The position numbers and the translations under genes are program-made. A stretch of 64,000 bases of DNA from Phycisphaerae bacterium (lineage in GTDB: Bacteria > Planctomycetota > Phycisphaerae > UBA1845), in assembly GCA_963666835.2 (NCBI GenBank), contig CAXXGO010000006.1:2304001-2368000 (forward strand), in the 5' to 3' direction. The notes under the pieces are model-generated. The model saw only the letters and a program-made list of their open reading frames with translations, made no database searches and was not told the origin of the DNA. Positions 15,587-36,210 of this stretch are shown piece after piece (within the stretch, counting starts at the first letter, position 1; each line of letters begins with the position of its first letter).

Positions 15587-15590
15587 GGAT

Positions 15591-18359: not shown

Positions 18360-18567
18360 CTGCAGAGCGGCCGATGCTACGGGAGCCGCGGTCGGCAGGC
18401 AAACGGGCCAATCTGCAGGAATTGCGCAACCAAAAGTGGCTTGCAGCCAGACTGGCAGCCTTGAGCGAGGTCGCCCTTTGTTGACTCGCCGTGTGGGTTT
18501 GGGGGCGATGAAACGGGCCGTGAGGCTCTGTCGATAGCCGATTTCCTTCTTGTCTGGGGCTCCGCCG

Positions 18568-18576
18568 TGGTATAAT
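18568..18576 (+). promoter_or_regulatory. Extended -10 promoter (TGnTATAAT) for the DUF1702-ACP-KS-KS operon
   Basis: Perfect TGGTATAAT in a GC-rich intergenic region ~200 nt before the operon. Confidence 0.55.
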
Positions 18577-18771
18577 CGGAGTGACACTAGCATAAGCACG
18601 CGAGGCTAAGCCTGCAGATCGTATCGCTGCCGGTTCTGTTTGGGTTGCGCAGAGGCTTGGCCGGCGGGTGAGCCGCAGCATGGTGGATTCGGCTTGCGTT
18701 CTGGCGCTGGTTGGCTCCGCGGATGGCGTGCTGGGTGTTCGGGCCGAAGCGACCGGGTTGGGTCGATTGAC

Positions 18772-19854
18772 ATGGGATATGGGATGTACATCACGCTGGT
18801 GATCGCAGCGGCGCTGGTCGTATGCCTTGGCACAGGTTGGTGGCGTGTGGGGTTCACGCCCTTTGCGATTCCCGCCCGTAAGATGACCGTCGAGCGGCTG
18901 GGACTTTGTGTCGCCGGACCGGAGGACGCGAAGCGGGTGAATGGGATTCTGGCGAGTTTCGCGGGCGGTTTCAATGCCATGATCGCGGCACGACGAATGA
19001 AGGCCGTGCGAGCCCATTGCGAGTCGATCGGTCCGCTGTATCGCTCGTTTGCGGAAGAGGGTATGGCGATGGGCTACACCCTCCGCCGCCTTTTCCGTTA
19101 CGATCCGGCCTCCTTTGAATCGCAGATTATCGAACAAGGCCCCGGTTTCCGATACCTCTACTACGTCGGCTTGGGCTTCTGGTCGGGGATCCGGAACCAC
19201 TCCGGGCAGCGTTTGACGGGCATTACGCAGGGGTTGGATCCGCTTCATCGATTCTTGTGCTTCGATGGCTACGGGTTCAACTACGCGTTTTTTGAGTACG
19301 GCAAGGACCCCGAGGTGCTTCGCCGGCTGGACGGCCTGGACGGGTACGCGCGTCACGCGGCGTATCAAGGGGTCGGGCGGGCATTCTGGTTCCTCTTCTC
19401 GGGCGACCCCGAGCGGCTTATCGAGCACGCCGCGCGGTTCGGGGAATATTCCGGAGATATTGCGGCCGGCGTCGGATTGGCGTCGGTGTTTGTCAATCCC
19501 GATCGGTTGGACACCGCCCGGGATCTGGCTAACAAGATGCCGCAAGAGTGGCACGATGACTTCCATCTGGGAATGTGTTTCGGGCTCAAAGCCCGTTCGA
19601 TTAATGATCCGGACGAGTATGCGCGAAATCTGGGGCTGCTGGATGCCGGAGGGCGTGAGGCGGTAACGGCTTCGATTCGAGAGTGTGATCGGGTCGAGGC
19701 GGCGGTTCGGGGAGAGATGGGCGAGGATGGATACCGGCGTTGGCGCGAGCAGGTAACGGCATGGATGGCTTCGAATGTTTCCTATCCGTTGACTGGAGTC
19801 GCGACGACTTCGCCGTCGGCATCGGGCCTGCCGACCGCAGTCGAAACGGCATAG
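18772..19854 (+). CDS. DUF1702 family protein (enediyne UnbL-like) with N-terminal TM
   Basis: FAEEGMAMG, YYVGLG, DGYGF..AFF, YQGVGRAFWF and GVGLA motifs. Confidence 0.75.
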   Translation: MGYGMYITLVIAAALVVCLGTGWWRVGFTPFAIPARKMTVERLGLCVAGPEDAKRVNGILASFAGGFNAMIAARRMKAVRAHCESIGPLYRSFAEEGMAMGYTLRRLFRYDPASFESQIIEQGPGFRYLYYVGLGFWSGIRNHSGQRLTGITQGLDPLHRFLCFDGYGFNYAFFEYGKDPEVLRRLDGLDGYARHAAYQGVGRAFWFLFSGDPERLIEHAARFGEYSGDIAAGVGLASVFVNPDRLDTARDLANKMPQEWHDDFHLGMCFGLKARSINDPDEYARNLGLLDAGGREAVTASIRECDRVEAAVRGEMGEDGYRRWREQVTAWMASNVSYPLTGVATTSPSASGLPTAVETA

Positions 19855-19866
19855 AGGAGGAGCGCA

Positions 19867-20115
19867 ATGAAAGGTTATGAGGCTGCCAAAGACGAGATTC
19901 TCGAGTGGATTAGCGAGGCGATTCAGGTTCCGGTTGCGGAGATTGACCTGGATAAACCGCTCACGGACATCGGTCTCGACTCGCTCGATGCCGTGCACAT
20001 GATCGCCACAATCGAGTCCATCATTCAGAAGGAACTGCCCGAGGACATCATTCAGCGCGTAAGCTGCCTTAACGACATGCTCGATATGATGCGGGAGAAG
20101 ATGGCTGCCGCCTGA
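19867..20115 (+). CDS. Acyl carrier protein
   Basis: 82 aa, acidic, GLDSL phosphopantetheine site; GAGGAG RBS. Confidence 0.9.
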   Translation: MKGYEAAKDEILEWISEAIQVPVAEIDLDKPLTDIGLDSLDAVHMIATIESIIQKELPEDIIQRVSCLNDMLDMMREKMAAA

Positions 20116-20157
20116 GTTCGGTTCCAACGTGATCCGCAAGGTCGAGCGAGGAGTCGT

Positions 20158-21342
20158 ATGGCTGAAGACGTCGTCATTACCGGTCTGGGGATAGTCTCTT
20201 CCTTGGGCTGCGGGGAGCAGCGCTTCTGGGATGCGCTCTATCACGGCCGGTCCGGGGCCTCGCCGGTTGATCTTATGGATACGTCCGATCTGTCACGGAC
20301 TATCGCGTGCCAGGTACGTGACCCTATAGACGTCGAAGGGGATATGGGCAGAGCCGCCCGTCTTTCCGTTTCCGCCGCCCGCCAGGCGGTGGCTTCCGCC
20401 GGAATCGCTTCGGCCGACCTGGCGGGCAGGCACGTGGTTACGACCATCGGCACGACGATGGGTGAGACGGAGTTCATCGAAGATCGTCTTACTTCACCGA
20501 ACGCAGACTGGCTCTCGCCTCAGCACACACAGCGGATTCTTCACGGCCGGCCCGGCTCGATTGCCGAGCATGTGCGGACCGACCTTCGAATCCACGGCCC
20601 GGCCGCCGATCTGTATGGGGCGTGCGCGGCCGGCAATATGGCGATCCAATCCGCCCGACGCCGGCTGCTGGCCGGTGAAGGAGATTTTGCCCTCGCCGGC
20701 GGGGCTGATGGTTTCAGTCGATTGGCCTTCATCGGTTTCATGCGTCTGCGCGTGATGGCGGCAGAGGTTTGCCGGCCTTTCGACGAACAACGTGACGGTT
20801 TGCTCGTCGGCGAAGGGGCGGCGGTGTTCGTGTTGGAGCGAGAGTCGTCGGCGCGGGCTCGCGGAGCGCCGATCAGAGCGCGAGTTGTAGGGGGGGCGGT
20901 CACGTGTGAGGACTATCACCCGACTCGCCCGCACCCCGAGGGCGATGGGTTGAGCCGGTCGACCACCGCGGCGTTGCGCGACGCCGGGATTGCTCCCGAA
21001 GACGTGGACTATGTCTGTGCTCACGGTACGGGAACGCCGCACAACGACGCCATCGAGGTGAAGGTGATGCAGAGTTGCTTCCCACGCGGCGTGGCCTTCA
21101 GCTCGATCAAGGCGCTGACCGGGCACCCGATGGGGGCGGCCGCGGCTATGGAGGCGGCGTGTTGCGCGCTCAGCCTCGAGGCTCAGACCCTCATCCCGAC
21201 CTGGCACTTGGAGAACACGCTGCAACCCTGCATGCTGGACGCGATTCAAGGGGCGCCGCGCGCGGCGCGTGTGCGCTACGTGGTCAACAACTCCGCCGGG
21301 TTCGGTGGTTACAACAGCAGCATTGTCTTGGCGGCGGCGTAG
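20158..21342 (+). CDS. Beta-ketoacyl-ACP synthase (FabF-like, KS1)
   Basis: VVITGLG, GACAAG (Cys), AHGTGT, KALTGH, GFGG. Confidence 0.9.
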   Translation: MAEDVVITGLGIVSSLGCGEQRFWDALYHGRSGASPVDLMDTSDLSRTIACQVRDPIDVEGDMGRAARLSVSAARQAVASAGIASADLAGRHVVTTIGTTMGETEFIEDRLTSPNADWLSPQHTQRILHGRPGSIAEHVRTDLRIHGPAADLYGACAAGNMAIQSARRRLLAGEGDFALAGGADGFSRLAFIGFMRLRVMAAEVCRPFDEQRDGLLVGEGAAVFVLERESSARARGAPIRARVVGGAVTCEDYHPTRPHPEGDGLSRSTTAALRDAGIAPEDVDYVCAHGTGTPHNDAIEVKVMQSCFPRGVAFSSIKALTGHPMGAAAAMEAACCALSLEAQTLIPTWHLENTLQPCMLDAIQGAPRAARVRYVVNNSAGFGGYNSSIVLAAA

Positions 21343-21442
21343 TAGCCCTTCGAGTAAGCAGGACGCCGCGGCCGGTGGTTTCGCCGGGTTTCTCGGGCCA
21401 GGCTCTGGGCACGCCTACGTTCCCTGGCTATAAAGTCAGTCT

Positions 21443-22711
21443 ATGGACTCGTACCCAAGACGTGTAGTGGTTACCGGGGTCGGGCCGGTGACTTCGATCG
21501 GCACCGGTTGTGATGACCTGTGGGCGTCCCTCGACGCCGGGCGTTCGAACGTTCAGACTCGCATGCTTCCGTCGGACGTCGCTTGCGGGGCGGAGTTGCC
21601 GATTGCCGCGATGCCCGCGGTTGAGGATGTGCCGGGCCTTGCCCGTCACGTCGATTTCCTGACCGGGCAAGACTGCGCACCTTATCGCGAATTGGCGTAT
21701 GCACTTCTGGCCATCGAGCTTGCCCTGGATGATGCGGGGCTCGATCCGGGGGACAATGGCAAGCGCGTGGGGGCGGTGCAGGTCTTTGAAGCGCCCGGCG
21801 TGGAGGGAACGGTGAGCCATCTGTTCCGGCTCATGTCGATGCCGCCGCCGCCCGGAGCGCCGCCGAAGCTGTACGACCATCTGGCCTCCTACTTCTACAG
21901 CATGCAGCCGTTTCATTTCGTCCATTTAATGGGTAAAGCGTTTGGGCTGCACGGTTTTTCAACGAGTGTGCACAATGCGTGTTCATCCGGGTTGTTTGCG
22001 ATGGAAATAGCCGCCCAGCAGATTCGCGCGGGTAACGCCGACGCCATGATCGTCGTCGGCGGGGAGGCATTTGAAACCGCCGTTCGCCTGGAGTGGTTCC
22101 GCCGGCTGGAGATGTACGCTTCGGATACGTGCATGCGCCCGTTCGATGCCGAGTCTTGTGGGTTCTACGTGGGGGAGGGGGCCGGGGCCATTGTGCTGGA
22201 AGCGGAGGAACTCGCCGCCCGGCGCGGGGCGAAGCCGTACGCCGCCTACCTTGGCGGGGCTCATGCCCAGCAAGCGTGGAAGCAGACGATCCCCGACGTT
22301 CGGGCGTTGAGGCTCCGCGATGTCATCACCGAGGCATTAACCCGAGCTTCGGTCTCGCCCGCGGATCTGGACCTGATTGTGCCGCACGGAGCCGGGACGA
22401 TGCTGTGTGATGGGTATGAAGCTTCATGCCTGGCCGGGGCACTTGGCGACGCCCAGACCTCGGCAGTGGCTACCGTGTTCAAGCCGAACCTGGGTCACAT
22501 GCTGGCGGCCAGCGGGATTACCGAGACCATTTGTGCTATGCTGGCCATGAAGCACGGTCGCGTGCCCGCCACCCTCGGCTCCCGCGCCGACCGGGTGAAG
22601 CTGGCCGTGCCCCTGGTGACCGAATCCGTGACCCACCCCATACGCTTTATTCTCAAAATGTCGACCGGCTTCACCGGCCACGATGCGGCGGGTGTTCTTG
22701 GTGAGGTATGA
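21443..22711 (+). CDS. Beta-ketoacyl-ACP synthase (divergent, KS2)
   Basis: VVVTGVG, NACSSG, GEGAG, PHGAGT, KPNLGH. Confidence 0.85.
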   Translation: MDSYPRRVVVTGVGPVTSIGTGCDDLWASLDAGRSNVQTRMLPSDVACGAELPIAAMPAVEDVPGLARHVDFLTGQDCAPYRELAYALLAIELALDDAGLDPGDNGKRVGAVQVFEAPGVEGTVSHLFRLMSMPPPPGAPPKLYDHLASYFYSMQPFHFVHLMGKAFGLHGFSTSVHNACSSGLFAMEIAAQQIRAGNADAMIVVGGEAFETAVRLEWFRRLEMYASDTCMRPFDAESCGFYVGEGAGAIVLEAEELAARRGAKPYAAYLGGAHAQQAWKQTIPDVRALRLRDVITEALTRASVSPADLDLIVPHGAGTMLCDGYEASCLAGALGDAQTSAVATVFKPNLGHMLAASGITETICAMLAMKHGRVPATLGSRADRVKLAVPLVTESVTHPIRFILKMSTGFTGHDAAGVLGEV

Positions 22712-23249
22712 TCCTCCTTCGGTGCGGCCCCTCCCTTGGCCAATCCACGCCGATTCGTCGACCCCCTGCGGCCACTCCCTGACGGTCGGCGGTCCAACAA
22801 GTTTCCTCATGACACCGATCTGGCACCACCCGTAGGGCAGGTCGAGGTACGAGACCTGCCGCAACGGCTGTCACCACCCGTAGGGCAGGTCGAGGTACGA
22901 GACCTGCCGCAATAACGCGCATCGCGCGAAGACTATGGCAGGTCTCGTACCTCGACCATGCCCTACAACCTGCCGTTAGTACGGTGAGCGTAAGCGACCC
23001 GCCCCGGGCCAATGCGCGGCCACTCGTCGACCGGCTACAGCCACTCCCTGACCGTGGGTGGGCCAGTAAGTCCATCCATGACACCGACCTGGCACCACCC
23101 GTAGGGCAAATCGAAGCACGAGGCCTGCCGCAATAATGCGCATCGCGCGAAGACTATGGCAGGTCTCGTGCCTCGACCATGCCCCGCGAGATCGTCGCGT
23201 GACGCGCGCTGTTGTGGCAAGTTTCGTACGTTGACCGTGTCGTAAGCGA

Positions 23250-23515
23250 AGCCCCTTGGGGCGGCAGGTCCTTTAGCCCCACGGCGTAAGCCTGGGGAAA
23301 CCGTGAGAACGCTTCGCGCCAAGCCCCCTCGGGGGCGGCAGAGGGCATCGAGATTCGAATCGGACACCGGTAATTCAACATCGTAGGGAAGCACGTTGGC
23401 GACCGCCGGGAGCATTTCGATCATCGAAGTGCCGCCCCTGGGGGCTTGGGTTGACGTGTGACGCGATCCCGCGGCTTACGCCGCGGGCTTGGAAGAGCTG
23501 CCGCCCTGACGGGCT
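23250..23515. repeat. Composite inverted-repeat (MITE/REP-like) element
   Basis: Ends agcccc..ggggcggcag / ctgccgccc..gggct with mirrored internal hairpins. Confidence 0.65.
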
Positions 23516-23718
23516 GGTCCCGCGAGCCACGTGGGTGGCACATATTCGTGCGACTCACACCATTGCGCCCTTGGTAGCAGGTCTCGTGCCTCGACCGTGC
23601 CCTACAATCTGCGCGAGTATTCATGATTGAAGGCTCCTACCCTCCTCGCCACCGCGCGGGAATGCGCTGCCGTGCGAGAATACGCCGCCGTGTGGGAGAA
23701 TGCGCTCCCGCGCCCAAA

Positions 23719-23932
23719 TACGCCGAAGGCGTTGCGCCCCTAAGCCCAGGGTTGCCGCGAAGCGGCTACCCTGGGATCACGATCACATTGAAGATCAACC
23801 CCAACGGGGTTGCGTCGGTGTTCAACCCACTTCGGGGTTGGTGCGGAAGAGGGCCCGGTGACCCAGGGTGGCACTGAAGCGGCTACGCCGCTTCGTTTAC
23901 CCTGGGCTTTGCTGTTTAACGCCTTCGGCGTA
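23719..23932. mobile_element. MITE-like non-autonomous element with 15-bp terminal inverted repeats
   Basis: tacgccgaaggcgtt / aacgccttcggcgta perfect IR; inner aagcccagggt / accctgggctt; partial copy at 12581-12676. Confidence 0.65.
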
Positions 23933-24340
23933 CGTTCGGAAAAAGCGTCCCGCGCGAGAACCCGGCGCCACCCGTAGCCCGTAGGGCAGGTCGAGGCACG
24001 AGACCTGCCGCAATGGTGCCCATCGCGCGAAGACTCAGCCCCTTCCTTACGGTGCGTGGGCCGGCAAGTTGACCCATGCCGCCGACCTGGCACCACCCGT
24101 AGGGCAGGTCGAGGTACGAGACCTGCCGCAATGGCGCGCGTCGCGCGAAGACTATGGCAGGTCTCGTGCCTCGACCGTGCCCTACAGCCTGCGCGGGCAT
24201 TCTTGATTGGGGAACCCGCAGGTAAGTCCATTGAACTGCGGCCAGAGAGAGAGTACCATTCAAAGGTGAGGCGGCGAACGATATGGAAACCACGAGATGG
24301 TACGCCTCGGTATGCCGTTTGGTCGATGCGGAGGGACACG

Positions 24341-24751
24341 ATGTCGGAATCGCAGACTGAGCCGCGCGTCTGCTGCCCGTCGTGCAGCTTCTCGCTGACG
24401 CAGGAGGCGCAACGGGATTGCGTGTGCGATAACTGTGGCACAGCGCTGGACGCGGAGTATCTGCGGTGTAGACGAGAGGAGCTGATTACCAAGGACGCCC
24501 ACGATCGACGCGTGTTGGCTTGCGAGCGGACTGCCGCCGTGGTCGGTGCAATCATGTTGGCGTCGGGCGCGGCAATGGTCGCCAAGTATGCCCCACTTAT
24601 GATGGTCAGCGGAAGAGCCTCCGGGGTATTCTTGATCGGCACTCTGATCGCCGTTGGCTGGCGCTGGCACAATCGTGATCCGATGTGGCCGGTGCTGGCG
24701 CCACTCGGGTTGTTCTGGTTTCTGTTCGGCTTGTTTTGCGCAGCGTGCTGA
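24341..24751 (+). CDS. Small Zn-ribbon + TM membrane protein
   Basis: CPSC...CDNCG then 3 TM; GGAGG RBS before ATG 24341. Confidence 0.6.
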   Translation: MSESQTEPRVCCPSCSFSLTQEAQRDCVCDNCGTALDAEYLRCRREELITKDAHDRRVLACERTAAVVGAIMLASGAAMVAKYAPLMMVSGRASGVFLIGTLIAVGWRWHNRDPMWPVLAPLGLFWFLFGLFCAAC

Positions 24752-25155
24752 AGTCGGCTATCCCGGATTGTCTATGACGTTCGCACAAATGCGCGTAACT
24801 TACTGTGGCCTCACCCATGTGGGTGACACCACTGAAACACAGCGCGCTTCCACGCCAGGGACAAGCCCTGGAGCTACACTTGGATCACGGCCTCTTGTTC
24901 GTTTGTGCGAGTAGTCAGCACCAAGGCGATGGGGACTGTGTTGCTGGAATTAGTCGACTCGGAGCAGATGTTCGTGACGCCTGGGCATCGGCTCTAGGCC
25001 GTGTTGCCGGCCGGGACGTGTAGCGGGCTCAGCAACACAAGGGGGACCTCCCGGCCGATGATTCTGTCAGGGTCTCTCCCGTGGTCGGTAATCCGCACGT
25101 CCGCACGTCCGCAGGTCGCGGAAGCCGGATGGCCGGTTCCCTGGCTTGCGTCCTG

Positions 25156-25196: not shown

Positions 25197-25727
25197 ATGC
25201 GTAACAAGAGCAACAACGATCATGAGGGTCGTGCCGGGGTGTTCAGTCGCCTGTTCTGGGGACTGATGATCCTGGCGCATGCTCCGGGTCTGATTGCCGC
25301 GGGGCGTGCCGGGCTTATGAACGGGTTCGGGGTGGAGCTACTCAGCGGGTCCGTCCTGCTGGTTGCCTCCATGGTGTTCTTCGTTCTGAAGATCCGGGGC
25401 GTTCCCTGGCTGCGGCTGCAAACCAATCGCCGGTCTGTTATTGCGGTTTGCCTGGTGGTCATGCTGATCCACCTGGAGTGCATCAGGCCCGGCCTGCGCG
25501 GCGAATTGCTATCCCAATGCACCGTTGTTCTGGTGACGACTTCGCTGGTTTTCGCCGTGCCGCGGGGGGTGCGAAGGGTCCGCTCCTCGTTGGCAAGCAG
25601 GCATTCTTCTTCAAGCTTGCGGAGTTTCGATGACCGCCCGACCGGCGTCATCTGGCTCGACTCATACCGCCCACGTTGTTGGGTCCTCGTTCTTTCCCTG
25701 CTGCGGCTGCGCGCGCCTCCTGCGTAG
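25197..25727 (+). CDS. 4-TM membrane protein ending LRAPPA; putative ribosome-arrest leader
   Basis: Four hydrophobic helices, His28 and His92 in TM1 and TM3, C-terminal RAPP immediately before the last residue, directly upstream of the heme operon. Confidence 0.65.
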   Translation: MRNKSNNDHEGRAGVFSRLFWGLMILAHAPGLIAAGRAGLMNGFGVELLSGSVLLVASMVFFVLKIRGVPWLRLQTNRRSVIAVCLVVMLIHLECIRPGLRGELLSQCTVVLVTTSLVFAVPRGVRRVRSSLASRHSSSSLRSFDDRPTGVIWLDSYRPRCWVLVLSLLRLRAPPA

Positions 25728-25891
25728 CCGACGAGGGCGTTCCGGTCCGGATTGCGTGGACTTGGGCAACGCCTCTCTCCGATTCGATTCGTTCTTGTCT
25801 TCCGACTGAGGTCTGGTTGTTAATAGCCGTAAGTGAGCCGGCACGCGGGTGCCGGAGGCTCCAAGCGGAGCCGTGGGAGGCATGGCATCAA

Positions 25892-28249
25892 ATGCTCTCG
25901 TTAAAACCGACCAGAGAATCCACCGGCGGGGGAGCCGGGGAATCGATCTCCACGTTATCGGCCACCAAGGGTGTGCTGCTCATCAACCTCGGGACTCCGG
26001 ACGCCCCCGATGTCGAATCGGTGCGCCGGTACCTGGCGGAGTTTCTGGGTGATCCCGAAGTGATCCAACTTCCGCGTGGGCTCAAGTGGCTCAATGGCCC
26101 GCTGGGGCGATTCATCGCCAGACGCCGGGCCCCTAAGTCCGCAAAGTCGTACGAGCAGATCTGGACCGAACGGGGCTCGCCCCTCGGTTCGATCAGCGCG
26201 GAACAGGCCGCGTCCCTGCAGTCGGCGATGCCCTCGGATTGGCAGGTCTTCCATGCCATGCGCTATGGGAAGCCGACGATCGCCGAGACACTCCGGCGGG
26301 TTGAGGATTCGGGGGTCGAGGAACTCGTCGTTATCCCGATGTATCCTCAGTTCAGCGGACCGACTACCGGCACGGCGCTGCGGGCGCTATACGGCAGCCT
26401 CAAGAGAGGCGGCCACCGTCTTAACGTAGCGACGCGTAACTCGTGGTACGACGACGGCGGATACCTGCACGCGCAGGCCAAGCTGATCGCCGATTACGCT
26501 CGACTGCACGGGTTGAGCCCGGAAGATACTCATCTCGTGTTCTCTGCCCATGGGCTGCCGGTGTCCTACGTGGAACGCGGCGACCCGTATCCGGATCACG
26601 TGAACCGCACGGTGGAGTTGGTCGCACAACGCCTCGGCTGGCCCGAAGAGCGCCGGACCTTGGCCTTCCAAAGCCGCGTGGGTCCGACGGCATGGCTGAC
26701 GCCGAATACCGAAGACGTGCTCAGGGAGTTGGGCGATCGCGGGGAACGGCGGGTTCTGGTTTGCTCGGTCAGTTTCACTACCGATTGCCTCGAGACTCTC
26801 GAGGAGATCGATCTGAAGTACCGAGAGATGTTCGAGCGTGACGGCCGGGAGATGTTCCTCTGTCCCGCGTTGAACACCAGCCGCGATTTCATCGCGGCCC
26901 TCAAGAACCTGGCGCTTCGGGGTCCTCAGGCGGTCAAGTCGTGGGGAGCGCGAATGCACCCGTTGTTGAAACCGGCGGCACAGCCCCTTTCGGCTTCTGA
27001 GCATGTCGACTCGCTCGTGTTTGTCGGCGTATCGATGAAGAGCCGGGTCGGTGACGGCAGCGGTCCGGAGCTGATTCACGAAGACGAGCGCGGTCTCGAG
27101 AAACTCAAGAAACCACACGATGAGATCCCCGGGATTCTCCAGGGAATCTGCGGTCGCCGCGGCGCGCGGGAGGCGTTCGTGTGGAACACCTGCTATCGGT
27201 TCGAGTTCTACGGCTGGGAGAGTGATTCCGCGGCCGGGCCCGACGATTGCGTGGTGGCCCGCGTCTGTCAGCAAGTGTTCGCCGGCGACATTCCGGAGGA
27301 TGTCTCGGTGAACGTCCTTCGCGGTCGGGAGGCGTGGCATCATCTGGTGCGCACGGCGGCGGGCCTCAACAGCGGTCTGGCGGGGGATCATGACGTCGTC
27401 GAGCAGCTTCGCACTGCGCACAACCTTGCTCAGCGCGCGGGGACTGCGGGGGTGTTGACCGATCGTCTGGTCAGCGAGGTTACCGAGTTGGAGCGCCGCC
27501 TGCGCAGCGAGACTGCGTGGGGTCGGTTCGACCCCGGCTATTGCTACGCGGCCATGTCCCGGCTTTTGGAGTCAGATGGAATCGACCTTCGCGAGAGTCG
27601 CATACTGGTTGTCGGTGGCTCAACGACGTCGCGATCCGTGCTATCGGCGCTGATTGATCGGTTCGGTGTGCCGGAGCGGCAGTTGACGTTGGCCTATCGT
27701 GGCCACGGCGGCGGGCAGATCAAACTTCTGCGCAGGGCGATTCGCGGCGGACGGCGCCTGCGGGTGCAGTCGTACGGTGAGCCGCAATTGGTGCAGGCGG
27801 TGGCGGAGGCGGATGTGGTGATCTTCGGGATCGATCGCGACGAGCCGGTGCTCGATGCGGGGGCGATCCGGGAGATGCGTGATTTCGCGGATCGGCCTTT
27901 GTTTGTGGTAGACTTCAACACTTTCGGCTCGACCCGCGGATGGGAGGCGGTGTCGGGAGTAACCGTTGTTGATGCGAACCGGCTGGCACAGACGGTTGTA
28001 GATTATACGAACGCAATGTGGACGGACGCGGAGTTTGCCGGAGCTCTGCGGGAGGCAGAGGATTGGATCGCGGAGCACCTGCCGCCGTCTGTCGAAGTGG
28101 ACAAACGCCCGCCGGGCTGCCCCGGCAGTATGGAAGCCGCGGCCGACTCCGGATTGTTGGGGCCGCGGGAGCGTTGGCTACGGTGCGTGCAATGTGTCGG
28201 GAACCGTTCGGTCGACGAGCGAGTTTCGGTCAGGAGCGGAGTATCATGA
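25892..28249 (+). CDS. hemH: Ferrochelatase fused to a divergent glutamyl-tRNA reductase-like domain (HemH-HemA)
   Basis: N-half: GVLLINLGTP, AMRYG, PMYPQFS, FSAHGLP, FQSRVG, DCLETLEEI. C-half: NTCYRFE, HLVRTAAGLNS, Rossmann ILVVGG. No internal stop. Confidence 0.85.
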   Translation: MLSLKPTRESTGGGAGESISTLSATKGVLLINLGTPDAPDVESVRRYLAEFLGDPEVIQLPRGLKWLNGPLGRFIARRRAPKSAKSYEQIWTERGSPLGSISAEQAASLQSAMPSDWQVFHAMRYGKPTIAETLRRVEDSGVEELVVIPMYPQFSGPTTGTALRALYGSLKRGGHRLNVATRNSWYDDGGYLHAQAKLIADYARLHGLSPEDTHLVFSAHGLPVSYVERGDPYPDHVNRTVELVAQRLGWPEERRTLAFQSRVGPTAWLTPNTEDVLRELGDRGERRVLVCSVSFTTDCLETLEEIDLKYREMFERDGREMFLCPALNTSRDFIAALKNLALRGPQAVKSWGARMHPLLKPAAQPLSASEHVDSLVFVGVSMKSRVGDGSGPELIHEDERGLEKLKKPHDEIPGILQGICGRRGAREAFVWNTCYRFEFYGWESDSAAGPDDCVVARVCQQVFAGDIPEDVSVNVLRGREAWHHLVRTAAGLNSGLAGDHDVVEQLRTAHNLAQRAGTAGVLTDRLVSEVTELERRLRSETAWGRFDPGYCYAAMSRLLESDGIDLRESRILVVGGSTTSRSVLSALIDRFGVPERQLTLAYRGHGGGQIKLLRRAIRGGRRLRVQSYGEPQLVQAVAEADVVIFGIDRDEPVLDAGAIREMRDFADRPLFVVDFNTFGSTRGWEAVSGVTVVDANRLAQTVVDYTNAMWTDAEFAGALREAEDWIAEHLPPSVEVDKRPPGCPGSMEAAADSGLLGPRERWLRCVQCVGNRSVDERVSVRSGVS

Positions 28250-29667
28250 GCGCGAGTATTTCAGACGCAGACTTGGCGATTTTTCGCAGATATGCCGGGC
28301 TGTCGCTGCCTCGTCATGTGTCGTACCCGATGCCAACTTGGTGGCAGGATGTTGATGAGACCGAGGCGGCGGCGCTGTACGAGGTGAGCCGGGGAGAACC
28401 GGCCAATGACCTGTCCCTGTACGTGCACGTTCCGTTTTGCGAGAAGCTGTGCAAGTTCTGCGCTTGTACCCGAGTGGTTCTACCCAAGGATAAGTCCGGA
28501 GCGACCGAGCGGGTCGAGGCTTATCTGGCGGCGATGGAACGAGAAATCGCGTGCCGGGCGGATCTGGCGGGTGATGGGCGCGCGTTGCGGCAAGTCCACT
28601 GGGGCGGAGGAAGCCCGCTGTATCTGACCTCAGAGCAGATGAGCAGGATTCAGAATGCCATCAGCAAGGCATTCTCATTGGCTCCGGATGCCGAGATCGC
28701 CGTCGAGATCGATCCGCGTCAGGCTACTCGGGAGCGAATCGAAGGGCTCCGCCGCTTGGGTTTCAACCGTATCTCGCTGGGCGTGCAGGATTTCAACGAG
28801 CAAGTCCAGGAACACGTGCATCGCGTCCAGCCTTTCGAGTTGGTTCGCGACACGGTCGAGGCCTGCCGCGCGGCGGGCTTCGCAAGTGTCAACTTCGATC
28901 TGATCTACGGCCTTCCGTACCAGACCGTCGAGACGGTGCGCGATGCCGTTGAACGATCCATCGGCTTGTCCCCGGATCGTGTCGCCTACTACCACTATGC
29001 CCAGATTCCCGAGAAGATCGCCACGCAACGGGGGATGGACTATACGAAACTCCCCGATAGCGACACCAAGCTGGAGATGTTCCTTTCCGGCGTGAGTCAG
29101 TTCGAGGAGGCCGGGTACGAGTTCGTCGGGCTGGACCATCTGGCTAAGCCGGACGAATCTCTGGCCCGGGCTCGTGCGGAAGGCACCCTTCAGCGCAACT
29201 TCCAGGGTATGACGACTGGGGGCGGTTTGGATCTCATCGCTGTTGGAGCGTCATCCATCAGTCATCTGGCGGGCGTGGGGTTTCTTCAGAACACCCGGGA
29301 TATTGCGGCATACGTGGAGAGCCTGGAGAACGGGAAAGGGCCGATTCACCGGGGGAAGCGTTTCACTCGTGATGATCTGATCCGTCAGGCCGTGCTCGCC
29401 GACCTCTACTGCCTGACTGAGGTTCGCGCTGATCGTATCGAGCGGCAGTTCGGCATTGTCTTCGGCGAATACTTCGCTCGGGAGCTCAAGATTCTAGAAG
29501 AGCTGGAGAAGGATGGGCTGATCGTGCGTGGCGCGGACGAGACGATTCGGGTAACTTACCCTCTCGGACGGGTGCTCCTTCGCAATATTGCGGCCGTGTT
29601 CGATGCGTATCTTGCTCCGGATGCATACCGCGCCGGAGAGCGCGAGTGCTTTTCCGCCAACGCCTAG
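28246..29667 (+). CDS. hemN: Oxygen-independent coproporphyrinogen III dehydrogenase (radical SAM)
   Basis: PRHVSYP, LYVHVPFCEKLCKFC, HWGGGSP, RNFQG; ATGA overlap with upstream gene. Confidence 0.93.
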   Translation: MSASISDADLAIFRRYAGLSLPRHVSYPMPTWWQDVDETEAAALYEVSRGEPANDLSLYVHVPFCEKLCKFCACTRVVLPKDKSGATERVEAYLAAMEREIACRADLAGDGRALRQVHWGGGSPLYLTSEQMSRIQNAISKAFSLAPDAEIAVEIDPRQATRERIEGLRRLGFNRISLGVQDFNEQVQEHVHRVQPFELVRDTVEACRAAGFASVNFDLIYGLPYQTVETVRDAVERSIGLSPDRVAYYHYAQIPEKIATQRGMDYTKLPDSDTKLEMFLSGVSQFEEAGYEFVGLDHLAKPDESLARARAEGTLQRNFQGMTTGGGLDLIAVGASSISHLAGVGFLQNTRDIAAYVESLENGKGPIHRGKRFTRDDLIRQAVLADLYCLTEVRADRIERQFGIVFGEYFARELKILEELEKDGLIVRGADETIRVTYPLGRVLLRNIAAVFDAYLAPDAYRAGERECFSANA

Positions 29668-29785
29668 TGCTGCGCCACACCCAGGGTCTCGGGTGTGCCT
29701 GCTCGTGAGCAGTGCATGGACGGGACGAGGTGTGGATTGCCCCCGGACCTTTACACATGGCCAAACGCCGGTAGAAGCTTCCAAC

Positions 29786-30820
29786 ATGAAGAACGACCTT
29801 CTGCTCCGAGCAGCGCGGCGCGAGCGTACCGTGCGAACGCCCGTCTGGTTGATGCGCCAAGCCGGCCGGTTCGATCCGCGCTACGGCGAGATTCGTCGGA
29901 AGTACGACTTGCCGCTTGAAGAGCTCTTTCGAAGACCTGATGCCGCGGCGGAGATCTCACTACTTCCCCGGCGATTGGGCGTTGACGCCATAATCTTCTT
30001 CCAGGATATCCTCACGCCGCTGGCGCCGATGGGGGCGGAGTTCGTGTTTCGACCCGGTCCCGTATTGGAAACGCCCTTGCGCGAGCCAAGTGATGTCGAA
30101 GCCCTCCGGCCGTACGATGTTGATTCGCATCTCGGTTTCGTTACCGAGACGCTCAAACTGGTTGCCGGGGCTTTGGATGGAGAGTTGCCGTTGCTCGGTT
30201 TTGCGGGAGCCCCGCTGACTCTGGCGTTCTTCCTCATCGAGGGACGTAGCCCTGGTGTAGAAGCCGATCGTGCATTGGGTATGATGCGATCGGACCCGAG
30301 CACCTTCCGCAGGCTGCTTCGTTTGTTGACGGACATGACCGTTGACTATCTGGCGTTGCAGATTGAAGCTGGGGTTGATGCTGTTCAGTTGTTTGAATCA
30401 TTGGCCGATCGGGTCTCGCCGGAGGAGTATTCTGAGTTTGCCCTGCCCTGCCAGGTTGAGATATTCTCAAGACTGGGGTCGCGGGTTCCGCGTATCCTGT
30501 TTGCGAAGGACCTTCCGTCGGTGGACCCGATGGCCGCCTCGGGAGCGGATGTGTTGAGCATAGGGTCCCGGTTGGACTTGGCTGAGGCCGGAAGACGGTA
30601 TGGTGATCGATTCGCACTTCAAGGCAATGTCGATAACTACCTTCTCAGGGACGGTAGTCTGGAGGAGATCGCCGCAGCGGTGCGAGCCTGCGTCGAAGCC
30701 GGTGGGAATACGGGCCACATCCTCAACCTCGGACATGGGATTCTCAAAGATACGCCGTTCGAGAATGTGCGTCAGTTCATCGAAACTGCTAGAATGGATG
30801 CCAACGACTCTGGGGGTTAA
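29786..30820 (+). CDS. hemE: Uroporphyrinogen decarboxylase
   Basis: PVWLMRQAGR, GFAGAP, LQGNVD, NLGHG. Confidence 0.95.
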   Translation: MKNDLLLRAARRERTVRTPVWLMRQAGRFDPRYGEIRRKYDLPLEELFRRPDAAAEISLLPRRLGVDAIIFFQDILTPLAPMGAEFVFRPGPVLETPLREPSDVEALRPYDVDSHLGFVTETLKLVAGALDGELPLLGFAGAPLTLAFFLIEGRSPGVEADRALGMMRSDPSTFRRLLRLLTDMTVDYLALQIEAGVDAVQLFESLADRVSPEEYSEFALPCQVEIFSRLGSRVPRILFAKDLPSVDPMAASGADVLSIGSRLDLAEAGRRYGDRFALQGNVDNYLLRDGSLEEIAAAVRACVEAGGNTGHILNLGHGILKDTPFENVRQFIETARMDANDSGG

Positions 30821-30843
30821 CCGGTGCTAAGGGCGGAGAGGCT

Positions 30844-32276
30844 ATGACGGACACCTTGCGAGACGTCATCGTCGTTGGCGGTGGGATCAGCGGTCTGACC
30901 ACGGCATGGTACCTGAAGCACGCCGACGTCGATGTCTGCCTGCTCGAGGCCGGCGATTATGCCGGCGGGGTCACGCGCACGGAGCGGCGCGACGGCTTCC
31001 TGCTGGAGAAAGGCCCGTTCAACGTCATAGTCCGAGATCCGGATTTCGAGACGTTGCTCGAGGGGGTCAGTGACGAGACTGACGTTGTCTCGGCGAGTCG
31101 GGCAGCCCGGGCGCGGTATCTGTACCGGAAAGGGCGCCTCTCGGCGGTGCCGACCAATCCGGTGGCGCTGGCGACCACGCCGCTGTTGAGCTTCGGGGCG
31201 AAATGCCGACTTGTGCGTGGATTGTTGGGCAGCCGGCGTTCGACTCGGATTGAGGAGACCATCGAACAGGTTGGGGCGCGACGCTTCGGGACCGAAGTAT
31301 CCGACACGATGATCAGTGCGGTCATCTCGGGGATATTCGCGGGGGACATTCGGCAGTTGAGTCTCAAAGCGTGTTTCCCGAGTGTCGCCCGGATCGACGG
31401 ACGAGCCCGAAGTCTGGTCGCCTACGGCCTGACTTCCCCATTCCGCCGCAAACGCTCTTCTCCGGAATCTCAACCCAGGCGGTGGCGGGGACTGGTGAGT
31501 CTTAAGGGTGGTCTGGGGACTTGACCCAGGCGCTGGCCCGCACGCTTGGTGACGATTGCATGACCGGTTGCCGGATCGACGAGATCCACGCGACCGATCA
31601 GGGCTATCAAGTAGTGTACAGCGATCGTGAAGGGGCGGTCGGTTCGGCGTACTGCCGCCGGTTGGTTTTGGGAACGGCCGCGTCGGAAGCCGCGCGCTTG
31701 CTCGGTCCGGTCGTGCCGGATGCTGCGGAACAGCTCATGACGATCGAGAGCGTTCCGATGCTCGTGTTGAACCTCGGTTTCAGGCGGGCGGACATCGGTC
31801 ATCCTCTTAAGGGTTTCGGTTTCCTGGTTCCGCGGAACGAGCCGGAGTACCCCTTGATGGGCATTCTCTGGGCCAACAGCATTTTCCCACACCATGCTCC
31901 GCCGGACCACTGCCTGATCCGCGTGTTTATTGGCGGCAGCCGTGATCCGAATGCCATCGAACGCAGCGATGACGAGTTGCTGGCGTCGGCGATGGATGCC
32001 TCGCGCGGGTTGCTGTCCATCTCCGGCGATCCGGTATTGACCGATATCTGCAGGTGGCCGGCTGCGATTCCCCAGTATGGGCTCGGTTACCTCGACAAGA
32101 TTGCGCGGCTTAATGCGGTGGTCGCTGCCCAACCGAACTTGTATCTGATTGGCAACTACATGGAAGGCGTGTCCCTGAATGATTGTGTTCGTTGTGCCAC
32201 GCGCGCGGCAAACGAGCTCATTCGCACGACGGAGCCGATGTACGCATCGTCGTCCCGGGCACTGGCGGCATCGTAG
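30844..32276 (+). pseudogene. hemY: Protoporphyrinogen/coproporphyrinogen oxidase (HemY-type), split by a 1-nt frameshift at ~31515-31522
   Basis: ORF 30844-31524 (VGGGISGL FAD motif, EKGP) plus ORF 31521-32276 (GFGFLVP, AIPQY, GNY..GVSLNDC); one extra base joins them into ~477 aa. Confidence 0.8.
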
Positions 32277-32286
32277 GGCGAACATC

Positions 32287-33309
32287 ATGGATGGATCACA
32301 AGAGTGGTTGCCGCCGGTTCGGCGGCCCCGCCGACTTCGCCGCAGCGAGACGATCCGCCGCCTGGTGCGTGAGACGCGCCTGACGCCGGATCGGTTGATT
32401 CTCCCGCAGTTCGTGATCGAAGGTACGGACCGCACCGAGCCGATCGCAGCCATGCCGGGGCGAGCCCGGCTTACGATTGACCGAACTCTGGCTGAGTGTG
32501 AAGAGGCCGCAATGCTCGGCGTTCGGTCGTTTGCTCTTTTTCCGGCGACCGATCCGGCGCTGAAGACCCCCGAGGCTAAGGAGGCACTCAATCTGGACAA
32601 CTTGCTTTGTCGGGCGGTGCGGGCGTTGAAGGAGGCGATGCCGGAAAGCTGCGTGATTACCGACATCGCCCTGGATCCCTATTCAAGCCTCGGGCACGAT
32701 GGTCTGATCAAAGATGGTGTGGTGGTCAACGATGAGACCGTAGAGGTCCTGGCCAAGATGGCCGTGGTGCAAGCTGGCGCCGGGGCGGACCTCGTAGCCC
32801 CGTCGGATATGATGGACGGGCGCGTGGATGCCATCAGAACGGCACTTGATGAGGCGGGTCATCAGGATGTCGGAATCCTCAGTTACACCGCCAAGTACGC
32901 ATCCAGCTTCTACGGCCCGTTTCGAGAGGCTCTGGACTCGGCTCCGGTTGACGCGCCGGACGTACCCAAGGACAAGAAGACCTACCAAATGGACCCGGCC
33001 AACGCCCGCGAAGCGCTGATCGAAGCTGCGCTCGACGAGGCGGAGGGGGCCGATGTTCTGATGGTCAAGCCGGCACTGCCCTATCTCGACATCATTGCTC
33101 GGCTCCGGGCGGTCACCGAGATGCCGATCGCGGCCTACCACGTCAGCGGCGAGTATGCGATGATCAAGGCCGCGGCCGAGCACGGGTGGTTGGATGAGCG
33201 AGCCTGCATGACGGAATCGCTGATGGCGATTGCCCGGGCGGGGGCGGACATGATTCTCACTTATGCCGCTTTGAGCTACGCCCGCTGGTGGCGCGATTCG
33301 TGGGCTTGA
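32287..33309 (+). CDS. hemB: Porphobilinogen synthase (Asp-rich, Zn-independent type)
   Basis: RPRRLR, DIALDPYSSLGHDG, APSDMMDGR, YQMD, MVKP, YHVSGEY. Confidence 0.95.
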   Translation: MDGSQEWLPPVRRPRRLRRSETIRRLVRETRLTPDRLILPQFVIEGTDRTEPIAAMPGRARLTIDRTLAECEEAAMLGVRSFALFPATDPALKTPEAKEALNLDNLLCRAVRALKEAMPESCVITDIALDPYSSLGHDGLIKDGVVVNDETVEVLAKMAVVQAGAGADLVAPSDMMDGRVDAIRTALDEAGHQDVGILSYTAKYASSFYGPFREALDSAPVDAPDVPKDKKTYQMDPANAREALIEAALDEAEGADVLMVKPALPYLDIIARLRAVTEMPIAAYHVSGEYAMIKAAAEHGWLDERACMTESLMAIARAGADMILTYAALSYARWWRDSWA

Positions 33310-33950
33310 TCGGCGATTGCGGCTGCCAGCGATTCGAAGCTTCGCTGCGGGGCTTCGACCCACGGCTCAATGCCCAGTTTCCGCAGGGCCGCACTGGTCG
33401 GCGGTCCGATGCTGGCGAAGGGTAGGTCGACCCTGCCGATGGCTTCGACCGCCGACGCGCTGGCTACTGCTGCCACGTCGACGCGATCGGTGATGCTCCG
33501 ATCGAAGGATCTAGCAACGGTTTCGTAGAGCACCGGGCTGACCAAGTTGACCCCGGCCCACGCCCGCGGAGGCGGCACCCGTGCCGATCGGGGATAACAG
33601 ACCGTTCCATGTGTTGCGATTGCCTTGAGTTCCGCAAACAGACTCTCCCCGGTCCCCTCGCGGCTGACCAGCTCGACCCGAAACCCCCGATCCTTGGCCG
33701 CCCTCCGAGAGGGCTCTGCAACCACGGCCAATCGCGGCACCCGAGCGGGCGCCGCTGCCACGGCCGCGATAGCGTAGGGGCTCGTCAATACGAGCCAATC
33801 ATCCGGACCGAGTCTGCTAATGGCCTCGGCGGCATCGTCGAGCACGCGGCGAGAAAGGACCGGCTCAAGAACGGCTTCCAGCCCGCAAGCCCGCAGGGCG
33901 GATGTCAGGGGCCCGTTATTGGCTTCGTCGCGTGTTACCCAGACTTTCAC
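33276..33950 (-). CDS. hemD: Uroporphyrinogen-III synthase
   Basis: VWVTR, WLVLTSP, LYET, ASASAV, SIGPPT; coupled to hemC. Confidence 0.85.
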   Translation of the reverse strand: MKVWVTRDEANNGPLTSALRACGLEAVLEPVLSRRVLDDAAEAISRLGPDDWLVLTSPYAIAAVAAAPARVPRLAVVAEPSRRAAKDRGFRVELVSREGTGESLFAELKAIATHGTVCYPRSARVPPPRAWAGVNLVSPVLYETVARSFDRSITDRVDVAAVASASAVEAIGRVDLPFASIGPPTSAALRKLGIEPWVEAPQRSFESLAAAIADQAHESRHQRA

Positions 33951-34837
33951 GAGGTTTCCTTCAGCTCACTGAGCAGCCGTTCGGCCAGGCGTCGGCCCAC
34001 CGCCGGAGCGTCGTCGCCGGTCTCCACCCCCTCTGCCAAGCGGTTTCCGTCGTCGCTAAAAAGCTGGGCATGTAAGGAAACGCCGCGGGAGTCTATCGTC
34101 GCCAGAGATCCTACGGGGACATGGCAACCGGCGTTGATTCCGCCCAGGAAGCTCCGCTCCGCTGCCACTGTGCGCCGGGACGGCTCATCGTCAAGAGCCG
34201 CGAGCAGCTCGACCGCGCGGTCCCCGTCGCGAGCCTGGATAGCCAAGGCACCCTGGGCCGGCGCGGGAACGAACCGGTCCGTCGGCAGATCGACTACGTT
34301 CGGCGGGTTGAGACCCAGGCGCCTGACCCCGGCGGCAGCGAGCACCACCCCGTCGAGCCCTTCCCGTTCCATCTTGGCAATACGGGTCGGCACGTTGCCG
34401 CGAATCGGCACGGTCTCCACGTCGCCCAAACGTCTGAACTGGGCGATACGGCGGGGGCTGCTCGTGCCCAGCCGAAAACCGGCTCGCAGGTTGTCTAGAT
34501 CCACCGGCTCCGCAGTAACCAGAATGTCGTGTACGACCTCGCGCGCTGGCACGGCCGCAATCACCAAGCCGGGCGTTTCTGCGGTTTGAAGATCCTTATA
34601 ACTATGAACCGCGAAGTCGATCTGATCACCCGCCAGCGCTTGCTCGATTGCCCCGACGAACCCCCCGACCGGCCAGTCGGCGTCGAACAACTGCTGGGTG
34701 GCGGTGTCCCCGTGGGTCTTGATGATTACTTCTTCGATGGTGAGCGAAGGATGCGCTTCGCGCAGCCGATCACACACCCAGCGCGTCTGCCAGATTGCCA
34801 GGTCGCTTCCCCGAGTACCCACCCGCAACGTGGTCAC
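33947..34837 (-). CDS. hemC: Hydroxymethylbilane synthase
   Basis: GTRGSDLA, AVHSYKD, GTSSPRR, RGNVPTR, PAPAQGAL, GCHVP. Confidence 0.93.
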   Translation of the reverse strand: MTTLRVGTRGSDLAIWQTRWVCDRLREAHPSLTIEEVIIKTHGDTATQQLFDADWPVGGFVGAIEQALAGDQIDFAVHSYKDLQTAETPGLVIAAVPAREVVHDILVTAEPVDLDNLRAGFRLGTSSPRRIAQFRRLGDVETVPIRGNVPTRIAKMEREGLDGVVLAAAGVRRLGLNPPNVVDLPTDRFVPAPAQGALAIQARDGDRAVELLAALDDEPSRRTVAAERSFLGGINAGCHVPVGSLATIDSRGVSLHAQLFSDDGNRLAEGVETGDDAPAVGRRLAERLLSELKETS

Positions 34838-36132
34838 GACGCGATACTCCTGAACGACTCTTCCGCCGCAGCGATGATCTGAGCGATCGACTCGTCATCA
34901 TGGGCCGATGAAACGAACATCGCCTCATACCCCGACGGCGGTAGCCACACTCCTCGATCCAGCATGGCGTGAAAGAGCTTCGCGTAGAGGTCGTGATTGC
35001 AGGCCTGCGCGTCGTCAAAGTTGTCCACGCGCTTGTTAGACAACGCCAGGCCGAACATCCCGCCGCAGTAACCGGTTTGCACCGGAACCCCCGACACCGA
35101 GCGCAACCCGTCCGTTAGGCGACGGACCTTCGCAGTCAAAGACTCATAGAATCCCTCGCCGTGGCAAATTCGCAGCGTGGCGGCACCGGCGGCCATGCCG
35201 ATCGGGTTCCCGCTCAGAGTGCCGGCCTGGTACATCGGCCCTAACGGGCTGACCTTCTCCATAAGGCTCTTCGGACCGCCGTATGCGGCCACGGGCATCC
35301 CGCCGCCGATGACCTTGCCAAGGCACGTCAGGTCGGGGCGAACTCCGCATATATTCTGGTAACCGCCCCACGCAGTGCGAAAACCGGTCATGACCTCGTC
35401 GAAGACCAGCAGGCTCCCGTGTTTGTCACAGAGGGAACGCAGGCCCTCGAGGAAGCCCGCCATCGGTAGAACGAGCCCCATGTTGCCTGCGATCGGCTCC
35501 ACCAGGATGGCCGCGATGTCGTCGGCGTGGGCGGCCATGAGCTGCTCGACGACTTCGAGGTTATTGTATGGGGCGAGCATTGTGGACTCGGCTATCCCCG
35601 CCGGTACTCCGGCCGAATCGGGGACGCCGAACGTGGCCGCCCCGGAGCCCGCCGCCACCAGTAGAGAGTCGACGTGTCCGTGGTAGCAGCCGAGGAACTT
35701 GACCACGCGCGTCCGCTTGGTCGCTGCCCGGGCCAGGCGGATTGCGCTCATGGTCGCTTCGGTGCCGCTGTTCACGAATCGAACGAGATCTACTGAGGCA
35801 AACGCCCCGGCAATTATCTCGGCCAGCTCGGCCTCGGCCGGGCAGCAGGCTCCGAAGCTGAGCCCCTTACCGGCGGCGACGCGAACGGCGTCGACGACTT
35901 CGGGGTGAGCGTGACCGACAATGGCCGGGCCCCACGTACCCACCAGATCCACATAACGGTTGCCGTCGACATCGAAGATGTACGGTCCTTCCGCCCGTTC
36001 GACGAAGACCGGCTTGCCGCCTACGGCTCGAAACGCCCGGACGGGGCTGTTCACCCCGCCCACCAAGGTCGCACATGCCCGGTCAAAGAGCGCGGCCGAG
36101 CGGCCCCGCGACGACTTTGTTTCTACGCTCAT
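34834..36132 (-). CDS. hemL: Glutamate-1-semialdehyde 2,1-aminomutase
   Basis: GGVNSPVRAF, NSGTEA, YHGH, FDEVMTGFR, GKVIGGG, YQAGTLSGNP. Confidence 0.95.
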   Translation of the reverse strand: MSVETKSSRGRSAALFDRACATLVGGVNSPVRAFRAVGGKPVFVERAEGPYIFDVDGNRYVDLVGTWGPAIVGHAHPEVVDAVRVAAGKGLSFGACCPAEAELAEIIAGAFASVDLVRFVNSGTEATMSAIRLARAATKRTRVVKFLGCYHGHVDSLLVAAGSGAATFGVPDSAGVPAGIAESTMLAPYNNLEVVEQLMAAHADDIAAILVEPIAGNMGLVLPMAGFLEGLRSLCDKHGSLLVFDEVMTGFRTAWGGYQNICGVRPDLTCLGKVIGGGMPVAAYGGPKSLMEKVSPLGPMYQAGTLSGNPIGMAAGAATLRICHGEGFYESLTAKVRRLTDGLRSVSGVPVQTGYCGGMFGLALSNKRVDNFDDAQACNHDLYAKLFHAMLDRGVWLPPSGYEAMFVSSAHDDESIAQIIAAAEESFRSIAS

Positions 36133-36210
36133 TATGGTCCTATACCTCCTGTTGCTTGCCGGACCCATTACAACACGGCCGCAGGCACTTGTCACGGTTA
36201 CCGGCCGGCA

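Follow-up and report, generated by a model that had tools for sequence, protein, structure and literature searches.

A conserved ferrochelatase–glutamyl-tRNA reductase fusion and a candidate arrest-peptide leader in the heme operon of a Phycisphaerae bacterium

The fusion gene and its heme operon

The subject of this work is a gene, in a 64,000-nucleotide (nt) stretch from a Phycisphaerae bacterium (hereafter the window), that joins ferrochelatase (HemH), which completes heme synthesis, to a domain resembling glutamyl-tRNA reductase (GluTR, HemA), the first committed enzyme of the pathway, and that is preceded by a conserved membrane leader. A preliminary description had reported here one uninterrupted frame of ~785 amino acids (aa) with HemH and HemA-like regions, and this holds: the open reading frame (ORF) check found a single open frame of 785 aa with 0 internal stops, whose parts are as follows.

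25892..28249, + strand: hemH–hemA fusion ORF, 785 aa (ORF, Pfam, bridging contigs)
25967..26914, + strand: ferrochelatase domain, aa 26–341, with His220 and Glu301 (Pfam 329 bits; TIGR00109 286 bits, cut-off 125; fold match to human, yeast and Bacillus ferrochelatases)
27005..27526, + strand: GluTR catalytic domain, aa 372–545, with T433, C434, R436, H484, S494, D499 and Q505 (Pfam, alignment; C434 in 120/120)
27527..27976, + strand: Rossmann (NADPH-type) domain with altered glycine motif GGSTTS (575–580) and invariant R603 (alignment)
27977..28246, + strand: short helices (696–730) and a Cys tail (C743, C765xxC768) where a dimerisation domain is expected (Pfam, alignment, model; tail pLDDT 39–65)

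Two of the three domains for which the preliminary description proposed a Pfam scan scored above cut-off, namely Ferrochelatase at aa 26–341 (329 bits, cut-off 27) and GlutR_N at aa 402–541 (70.6 bits, cut-off 27), while Shikimate_DH at aa 565–675 fell below it (15.9 bits, cut-off 24.3); no GlutR_dimer (PF00745) match was found in the protein at E 0.1. The AlphaFold model (predicted local distance difference test, pLDDT, 89; predicted template modelling score, pTM, 0.65; low confidence in the tail) matched known ferrochelatases and also GluTR structures (E 5e-16), and a complex prediction between the two halves scored 0.00, which bears neither way. The N-terminal half has the marks of HemH (TIGR00109, PF00762), being above cut-off with His220 and Glu301 in place and reaching a Foldseek E of 1e-23 with the human and yeast enzymes, to which it is nearer in the fold search (~30% identity) than to that of Bacillus (~22%). 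Human and yeast ferrochelatases are dimers. Unlike ordinary HemH, it is fused, and it shows pseudo-enzyme decay in copies found in dsr clusters.

An assembly artefact at the junction was ruled out by homologues with both domains and by contigs of a second study (runs X2 and X3, from one sample), which cover 25888–33400 in one piece with ~49 differing letters and so provide the coverage across the junction that had been proposed as a check; the window itself may derive from run X1. The proposed architecture search was equally clear. The C-terminal half has 205 homologues, and both Pfam domains occur in 117 of the 120 that match best; the names given are Phycisphaerae or Planctomycetota. The GluTR domain was found at E < 1e-70 in 35 of 201 genomes of the same order, spread over four families and including that of the window (G000, 92% complete), with ferrochelatase ~1.1 kb upstream in the same frame in those carriers; two more carrier genomes lie outside the order. 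All counts given here and below are over kin that are not independent of one another. JGI automatic names call a few of these proteins 'protoheme ferro-lyase/glutamyl-tRNA reductase', and a full-text literature search, in which most subscription papers are not searchable, found no paper on a HemH–HemA fusion. In the consulted passages of a 2026 review (PMC13564367), CpfC–ChdC (HemH–HemQ) of Cutibacterium acnes is the only fusion named. CpfC–ChdC likewise unites ferrochelatase with a heme-pathway enzyme, but it joins consecutive steps, whereas HemH–HemA joins the first committed and the last. The fusion is thus conserved and real, and apparently undescribed. From what is known of the pathway, substrate channelling cannot explain the join, as had been pointed out from the start, because the two steps are not consecutive.

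The rest of the cluster is as first described, hemD being a weak match:

28246..29667, + strand: hemN, overlapping the fusion stop (TIGR00538, 469 bits)
29786..30820, + strand: hemE, start approximate (TIGR01464, 298 bits, slightly below the cut-off of 303)
30844..32276, + strand: hemY, which an assembly slip divides in two in the window (family match and covering runs)
32287..33309, + strand: hemB, start approximate (family match)
33276..36135, − strand: convergent hemL, hemC and hemD (family matches; hemD below cut-offs)

Because all three covering runs (3/3) carry one extra base in hemY (30844–32276), its division into two overlapping ORFs is an assembly slip and the gene is intact; a hemY pseudogene was accordingly rejected. 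The fusion supplies the sole GlutR_N and the sole ferrochelatase that Pfam detects in G000, in keeping with the earlier statement that there is no separate hemA. The best match to 5-aminolevulinate (ALA) synthase (ALAS) models in that genome (282 bits, cut-off 339) was rejected as a glycine C-acetyltransferase (Kbl). No ChdC was found in it, and a context of hemE, hemN and hemY without chdC fits the protoporphyrin route, as for HemH.

The glutamyl-tRNA reductase half

T433, C434, R436, S494, G498 and Q505 are invariant in 120/120 aligned rows, the H484 position is kept in 110/120, and the position of Glu99 is Asp in 82/120 and Glu in 38/120. In the alignment, residues of the fusion fall on T47, position 48, R50, S94 and Q105 of 1GPJ, whose deposited chain has Ser at 48. 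We take these active-site positions to be those of the catalytic Cys and of the Thr, Arg, His, Ser, Glu and Gln that bind glutamate. Canonical GluTR (HemA/GtrR: TIGR01035; 1GPJ, 4N7R/5CHE/5YJL) is alike in the sequence and fold of its catalytic and Rossmann domains, and shares the Thr-Cys-x-Arg, His, Ser and Gln of the active site and the Arg after the second strand. Unlike it, the fused half has no dimerisation domain (its alignment to E. coli HemA stops after the first helix), lies C-terminal to a ferrochelatase, and has a glycine loop that reads GGSxTS rather than GAGEMG, the second Gly being Ser in 120/120, which departs from the GxGxxG/A pattern of NADPH loops. The Rossmann fold and R603 are retained despite the altered loop (alignment, model), and Asn49 is not conserved in the family.

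A stand-alone GlutR_N is absent from 25 of the 34 other carriers and present in 9/34, which leaves most carriers with a full operon and, as far as can be seen, no supply of ALA but the fused domain; one carrier (G380) is a single contig without any other GlutR_N, and its operon comprises hemL, C, D, B, Y, E and N. Because annotation says only 'ferrochelatase', such carriers appear to be hemA-less. Of the five extra hemA genes inspected, four lie in siroheme or sulfate-assimilation operons and one beside selA/selB. At L079:8744-9847 (G287), selA and selB adjoin a divergent stand-alone hemA that has no dimer domain.

Since the fused domain is the sole GluTR in 26/35 carriers and its catalytic set is invariant, the HemA half, as judged from its sequence, probably works as a divergent GluTR. 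The family would define a GluTR subtype without dimer domain or canonical glycine loop, and the protein appears to be HemA-like in its working yet lacks three features by which HemA members are recognised. That it has ceased to be a GluTR, being dead, esterase-only or turned to other chemistry with ALA coming from an undetected source, seems to us improbable. It scores below every HemA equivalog cut-off, and the Ser in the loop, the variable Asn49, the frequent Asp for Glu99 and the second hemA of the nine carriers just mentioned, in a set of genomes that are incomplete, would all fit such a loss; against it stand the invariant catalytic set, the many carriers without another GluTR, the lack of a detected ALAS in G000, and the repeated recruitment of the domain beside dsrN and uroporphyrinogen methyltransferase genes, where an ALA supply is needed.

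In quick trees, which gave long-branch warnings at the root, a long stem branch separates the fused domain from ordinary HemA. Related stand-alone GluTRs of 350–378 aa, without dimer domain or partner, share the short end and several motifs and keep the glycine, and the ordinary hemA genes of the order are likewise short at the C-terminus. Several stand-alone GluTRs of 348–378 aa and of different composition, without a dimer domain (P0222, P0224, P0226, P0231, P0235, P0237–P0242), have the motifs SYC and DFN in common with the fused domain.

These comparisons bear on a structural role, in which the ferrochelatase half would replace the lost dimer domain or anchor GluTR at the membrane near HemL and the late enzymes. 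The missing GlutR_dimer match, the nearness in fold to the dimeric human and yeast ferrochelatases and the persistence of ferrochelatase remnants (below) speak for this idea, which we consider unlikely and only slightly stronger than loss of GluTR function: related GluTRs of 350–378 aa stand alone without dimer domain or partner, ordinary hemA of the order is short too, and stand-alone members of the family itself (P0143, P0148, P0154) lie on long contigs.

Erosion of the ferrochelatase half beside siroheme and dsr genes

In about 20 of the 120 homologues the ferrochelatase His is missing, or entire segments are, and the erosion extends to a C-terminal remnant only (P0143) or to no ferrochelatase at all, although remnants of 200–300 aa persist in most eroded copies. 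Setting aside 5 duplicates, 14 cut copies and 18 loci that lack context leaves 45 of the 82 scored: intact copies sit in heme operons in 20/21 of them and eroded copies adjoin dsr or siroheme genes in 22/24, one exception differing by only Glu to Asp. In one genome (G338), an eroded copy follows dsrO, dsrP, dsrA and dsrB (above NCBIfam cut-offs) as well as genes resembling dsrL and dsrN, and the heme operon of the same genome begins with an intact twin; DsrN amidates siroheme (PMC7617358). Among positions conserved in intact copies, eroded ones retain 92/101 in the GluTR half versus 38/129 in the ferrochelatase half. A tail with at least three Cys is present in 65/92 intact versus 1/21 eroded homologues. 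That GluTR was inserted ahead of a pre-existing ferrochelatase Cys tail is unsupported, two close stand-alone HemH ending without such a tail.

Eroded copies fall at three separate places among intact fusions in the quick trees, and a single origin was rejected (LG+G4, 51 rows) at approximately unbiased test values (p-AU) of 0.008 for a group of 18 rows, drawn after seeing the tree, and 0.0008 for one of 22 rows. The ferrochelatase active site and Cys tail have thus been lost at least twice in copies beside dsr or siroheme genes, with the GluTR half kept. The GluTR domain is also found fused to DsrN (P0105), and read-through into HemN gives triple HemH–HemA–HemN proteins (P0054, P0075 and L074, at L074:2745-6938). 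The positions retained by eroded copies, and the stand-alone and DsrN- or HemN-fused forms, show that the GluTR half is under selection by itself and that neighbours at this locus fuse readily.

Clusters of dsrAB, dsrL and dsrN with their own fusion-derived GluTR were also seen at L068:349-10659 (G338), L070 (G407), L106, L108, L115, L117, L124, L141, L144 and L147, on contigs that are Phycisphaerae-like and others; GluTRs of dsr clusters often precede a uroporphyrinogen methyltransferase gene and a PF03601 gene.

The erosion series is where the idea raised in the preliminary description, an intramolecular feedback device, can be weighed. In such a device the GluTR half would be shut down or destabilised by heme that the ferrochelatase half, or the Cys tail, produces or retains, and copies redeployed to siroheme synthesis would have escaped such control, in line with the split by context, the repeated origin of eroded copies and the distribution of the Cys tail. 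Eroded remnants moreover keep some family-specific ferrochelatase motifs (R182, W185, D188, W250-P251, R254). There are also precedents for first–last enzyme contact, in pull-downs of ALAS with ferrochelatase (FECH) in a mitochondrial metabolon (PMC13564367), and for a partner protein that brings GluTR under heme control (PMC6597238). In HemX (Bacillota), GBP/Clp (plants) and ALAS–FECH, heme status likewise acts on the first committed step (PMC10991733, PMC6597238, PMC13564367), but these are separate proteins, none a covalent fusion or an arrest peptide. Nevertheless, the erosion is just as well accounted for if a second ferrochelatase is simply redundant, G338 keeping an intact twin, and the series, fitting escape from feedback and plain redundancy alike, does not distinguish the two. 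The Cys tail is missing in 27/92 intact copies, the semi-conserved C710 is Trp in the window protein, and past residue 350 only seven positions separate the intact from the eroded class, mostly by conservative swaps, so that almost no GluTR-domain residues are specific to copies with an intact ferrochelatase. Since, in addition, a separate leader already gives a feedback route, we regard the intramolecular device as unlikely, if somewhat less so than the structural role.

The upstream leader and its targets

A second conserved element lay outside the coordinates covered by the preliminary description. It is an upstream ORF (uORF) in the following arrangement.

25197..25727, + strand: leader, a conserved membrane uORF of 176 aa with a C-terminal RAPP and two invariant histidines (His28, His92), a candidate ribosome-arrest sensor (alignment, profile, model)
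25710..25721, + strand: RAPP codons, residues 172–175, one residue before the stop (R172, P174 and P175 invariant in the alignment)
25728..25891, + strand: 164-nt spacer from the leader stop to the fusion ATG, containing GGGAGG, which resembles a Shine-Dalgarno site (sequence)

The leader has three or four hydrophobic helices (hydropathy peaks 1.3, 2.3 and 2.0; four helices in the model) and ends in RAPPA. Among 35 leader loci, selected for an R[AG]PP ending ahead of the fusion gene, neither His28 nor His92 varies (35/35 aligned); the pair is spaced 64 residues apart in 28/30 distinct leaders, mostly 74–81 residues ahead of the Arg. A few members of the leader family end in RSPP, RPPP or HAPP instead. 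The chance background of ORFs with an R[AG]PP ending is 0.019 per kb and strand of the genome, and G000 has one leader copy. A leader profile found it before 18/18 intact heme-operon copies with upstream DNA and before 0/22 eroded siroheme or dsr copies, some of which are cut close upstream. Across the order it is present in 119/201 genomes, a first look that may miss leaders: in 33/35 fusion genomes, the remaining two having only eroded copies, in 0/29 genomes with an unfused HemH, and in 86 others, all without ferrochelatase, while 51 genomes have neither leader nor ferrochelatase. Only 5/401 genomes phylum-wide gave a match.

No Pfam or NCBIfam family matched the leader, a fold search returned generic helical matches only (Z < 8), and in the Atlas it resembles Planctomycetota and Acidobacteriota clusters; one Atlas cluster of 206 members, mostly Acidobacteriota, resembles it with a score of 0.92. 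Leader-to-target spacers span 101–291 nt over 60 homologous sites. Folding of the spacer was no better than that of shuffles (z −0.32), and no promoter-like site was found.

The leader has the features of RAPP uORFs, with a conserved terminal R[AG]PP, a membrane segment and a position upstream of, and co-oriented with, a conserved target. Such uORFs are ligand-sensing arrest peptides (PMC9426467, PMC12992588, bioRxiv 2025.02.05.636593), among them CruR, in which copper relieves the stall and the spacer is 162 bp (PMC9426467), against 164 nt here. With CruR/CutF (DUF2946) and the RAPP/RGPP leaders of PMC12992588 it shares a length below 300 aa, a membrane or export signal, a long spacer, and conserved residues, putatively ligand-binding, that keep a set spacing to the terminal RAPP. 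It differs from CruR/CutF in that DUF2946 matched none of 30 leader members at E 0.05 and the conserved CxxC, which in those proteins lies 45 residues before RAPP, is likewise absent, a His pair in the helices taking its place; it also heads heme synthesis genes, and its arrest is putative. The available main text of a proteome-wide survey of RAPP/RGPP uORFs (PMC12992588) mentions neither heme nor ferrochelatase nor hemH, although its supplements may bear on novelty, and a literature search for heme with RAPP uORFs returned the CruR paper only.

The mechanism that we favour, to which we give about an even chance, is one of independent domains that arose by fusion of operon neighbours and whose expression is gated by the leader. 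The first two genes of a heme operon would have fused once, leaving an intact ferrochelatase and a divergent, working GluTR without dimer domain, the two halves being largely independent. The GluTR half would bind NADPH through its Ser/Thr-rich loop and R603 and would make glutamate-1-semialdehyde for HemL. Operon control would most likely fall to the membrane leader: ribosomes may stall at its RAPP end, a ligand held between His28 and His92 may release the stall, and this release may lower expression of the hem genes that follow, in the way known for copper and CruR. Judged from the two histidines and from what the leader precedes, heme is about as likely a ligand as all other choices together; iron or another metal is a weaker possibility, and the sensing of membrane insertion or secretion weaker again. 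The leader is thus a better candidate for the feedback element than an intramolecular device, although both the feedback and the structural roles considered above are compatible with leader control and not exclusive of it.

Targets of the leader elsewhere widen the question. Of 40 further leader sites, two head the fusion; the other 38 keep the His pair, with RAPP-like ends in nearly all, and head secreted PEP-CTERM, dockerin or prepilin-type proteins, comprising three families without known match, with no heme gene. Judging by its position after the leader, this surface cassette is a candidate heme or metal uptake system. Of 32 cassette genomes checked, HemE was detected in 2/32 (weakly), AhbD in 0/32 over cut-off and HemB in 18/32; cytochrome c assembly genes are present in 32/32, and in 190/201 genomes overall. 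Many members of the order may be heme auxotrophs. It is also conceivable, though we hold it more tentatively than the gating of the fusion itself, that the order uses a heme-sensing arrest leader, a nascent membrane protein whose RAPP stall would be gated by heme bound between its two helix histidines, either for a synthesis operon headed by the HemH–HemA fusion or, in relatives unable to make heme, for a heme-scavenging surface cassette, with the fusion perhaps adding an intramolecular layer that is shed on siroheme redeployment.

Several points weigh against these readings. Besides the relatedness of the kin counted, the whole protein scores 70.5 against the TIGR01035 cut-off of 209.55, and NADPH use is left unproven by the Ser that replaces the second glycine of the dinucleotide motif in 120/120 and by a score of the GluTR half (70 bits) below the cut-off (210). 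The motifs kept by eroded remnants hint, at the level of sequence, at a physical tie between the halves. A modelled stall raised access to the start site at 24 of the 60 sites and lowered it at 14, which is inconsistent. The secreted targets also fit a secretion monitor or a metal sensor, and heme demand fails to single out leader genomes because cytochrome c assembly is so nearly universal.

How heme is tuned is poorly known in most Gram-negative C5-pathway bacteria without HemX. At this locus the first and last enzymes are covalently paired, and copies that are eroded, reduced to a remnant, fused to DsrN or standing alone serve as natural controls; together with the leader, the erosion series makes heme feedback directly testable in this group. 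The leader is a candidate heme- or metal-sensing arrest peptide in a class so far shown for copper and protein localisation, and it points to a surface cassette in relatives without a recognised heme route which, if the reading is true, would be a new heme-scavenging system.

Further observations concern the cassette and the surroundings of the operon. PEP-CTERM/dockerin families and a prepilin-type gene follow the leader at L205–L244 (e.g. L206:3328-4569, L211:852-2665), in genomes without ferrochelatase; no Atlas match above 0.84 was found for a cassette protein. Four fusion genomes (G356, G287, G088, G348) also carry the cassette. Altogether 137/201 genomes show no ferrochelatase, and 14/32 of those checked are also without HemB. 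Upstream of the operon in the window, 14024–22711 holds a small biosynthetic cluster with an aromatic amino acid lyase, an MMPL/RND-like transporter, DUF1702 and two ketosynthase-like genes. Short repeated segments lie at 22900–24400 and 24834–24880, and near 24836–24880 many other contigs match when reads are laid down, which suggests a dispersed repeat.

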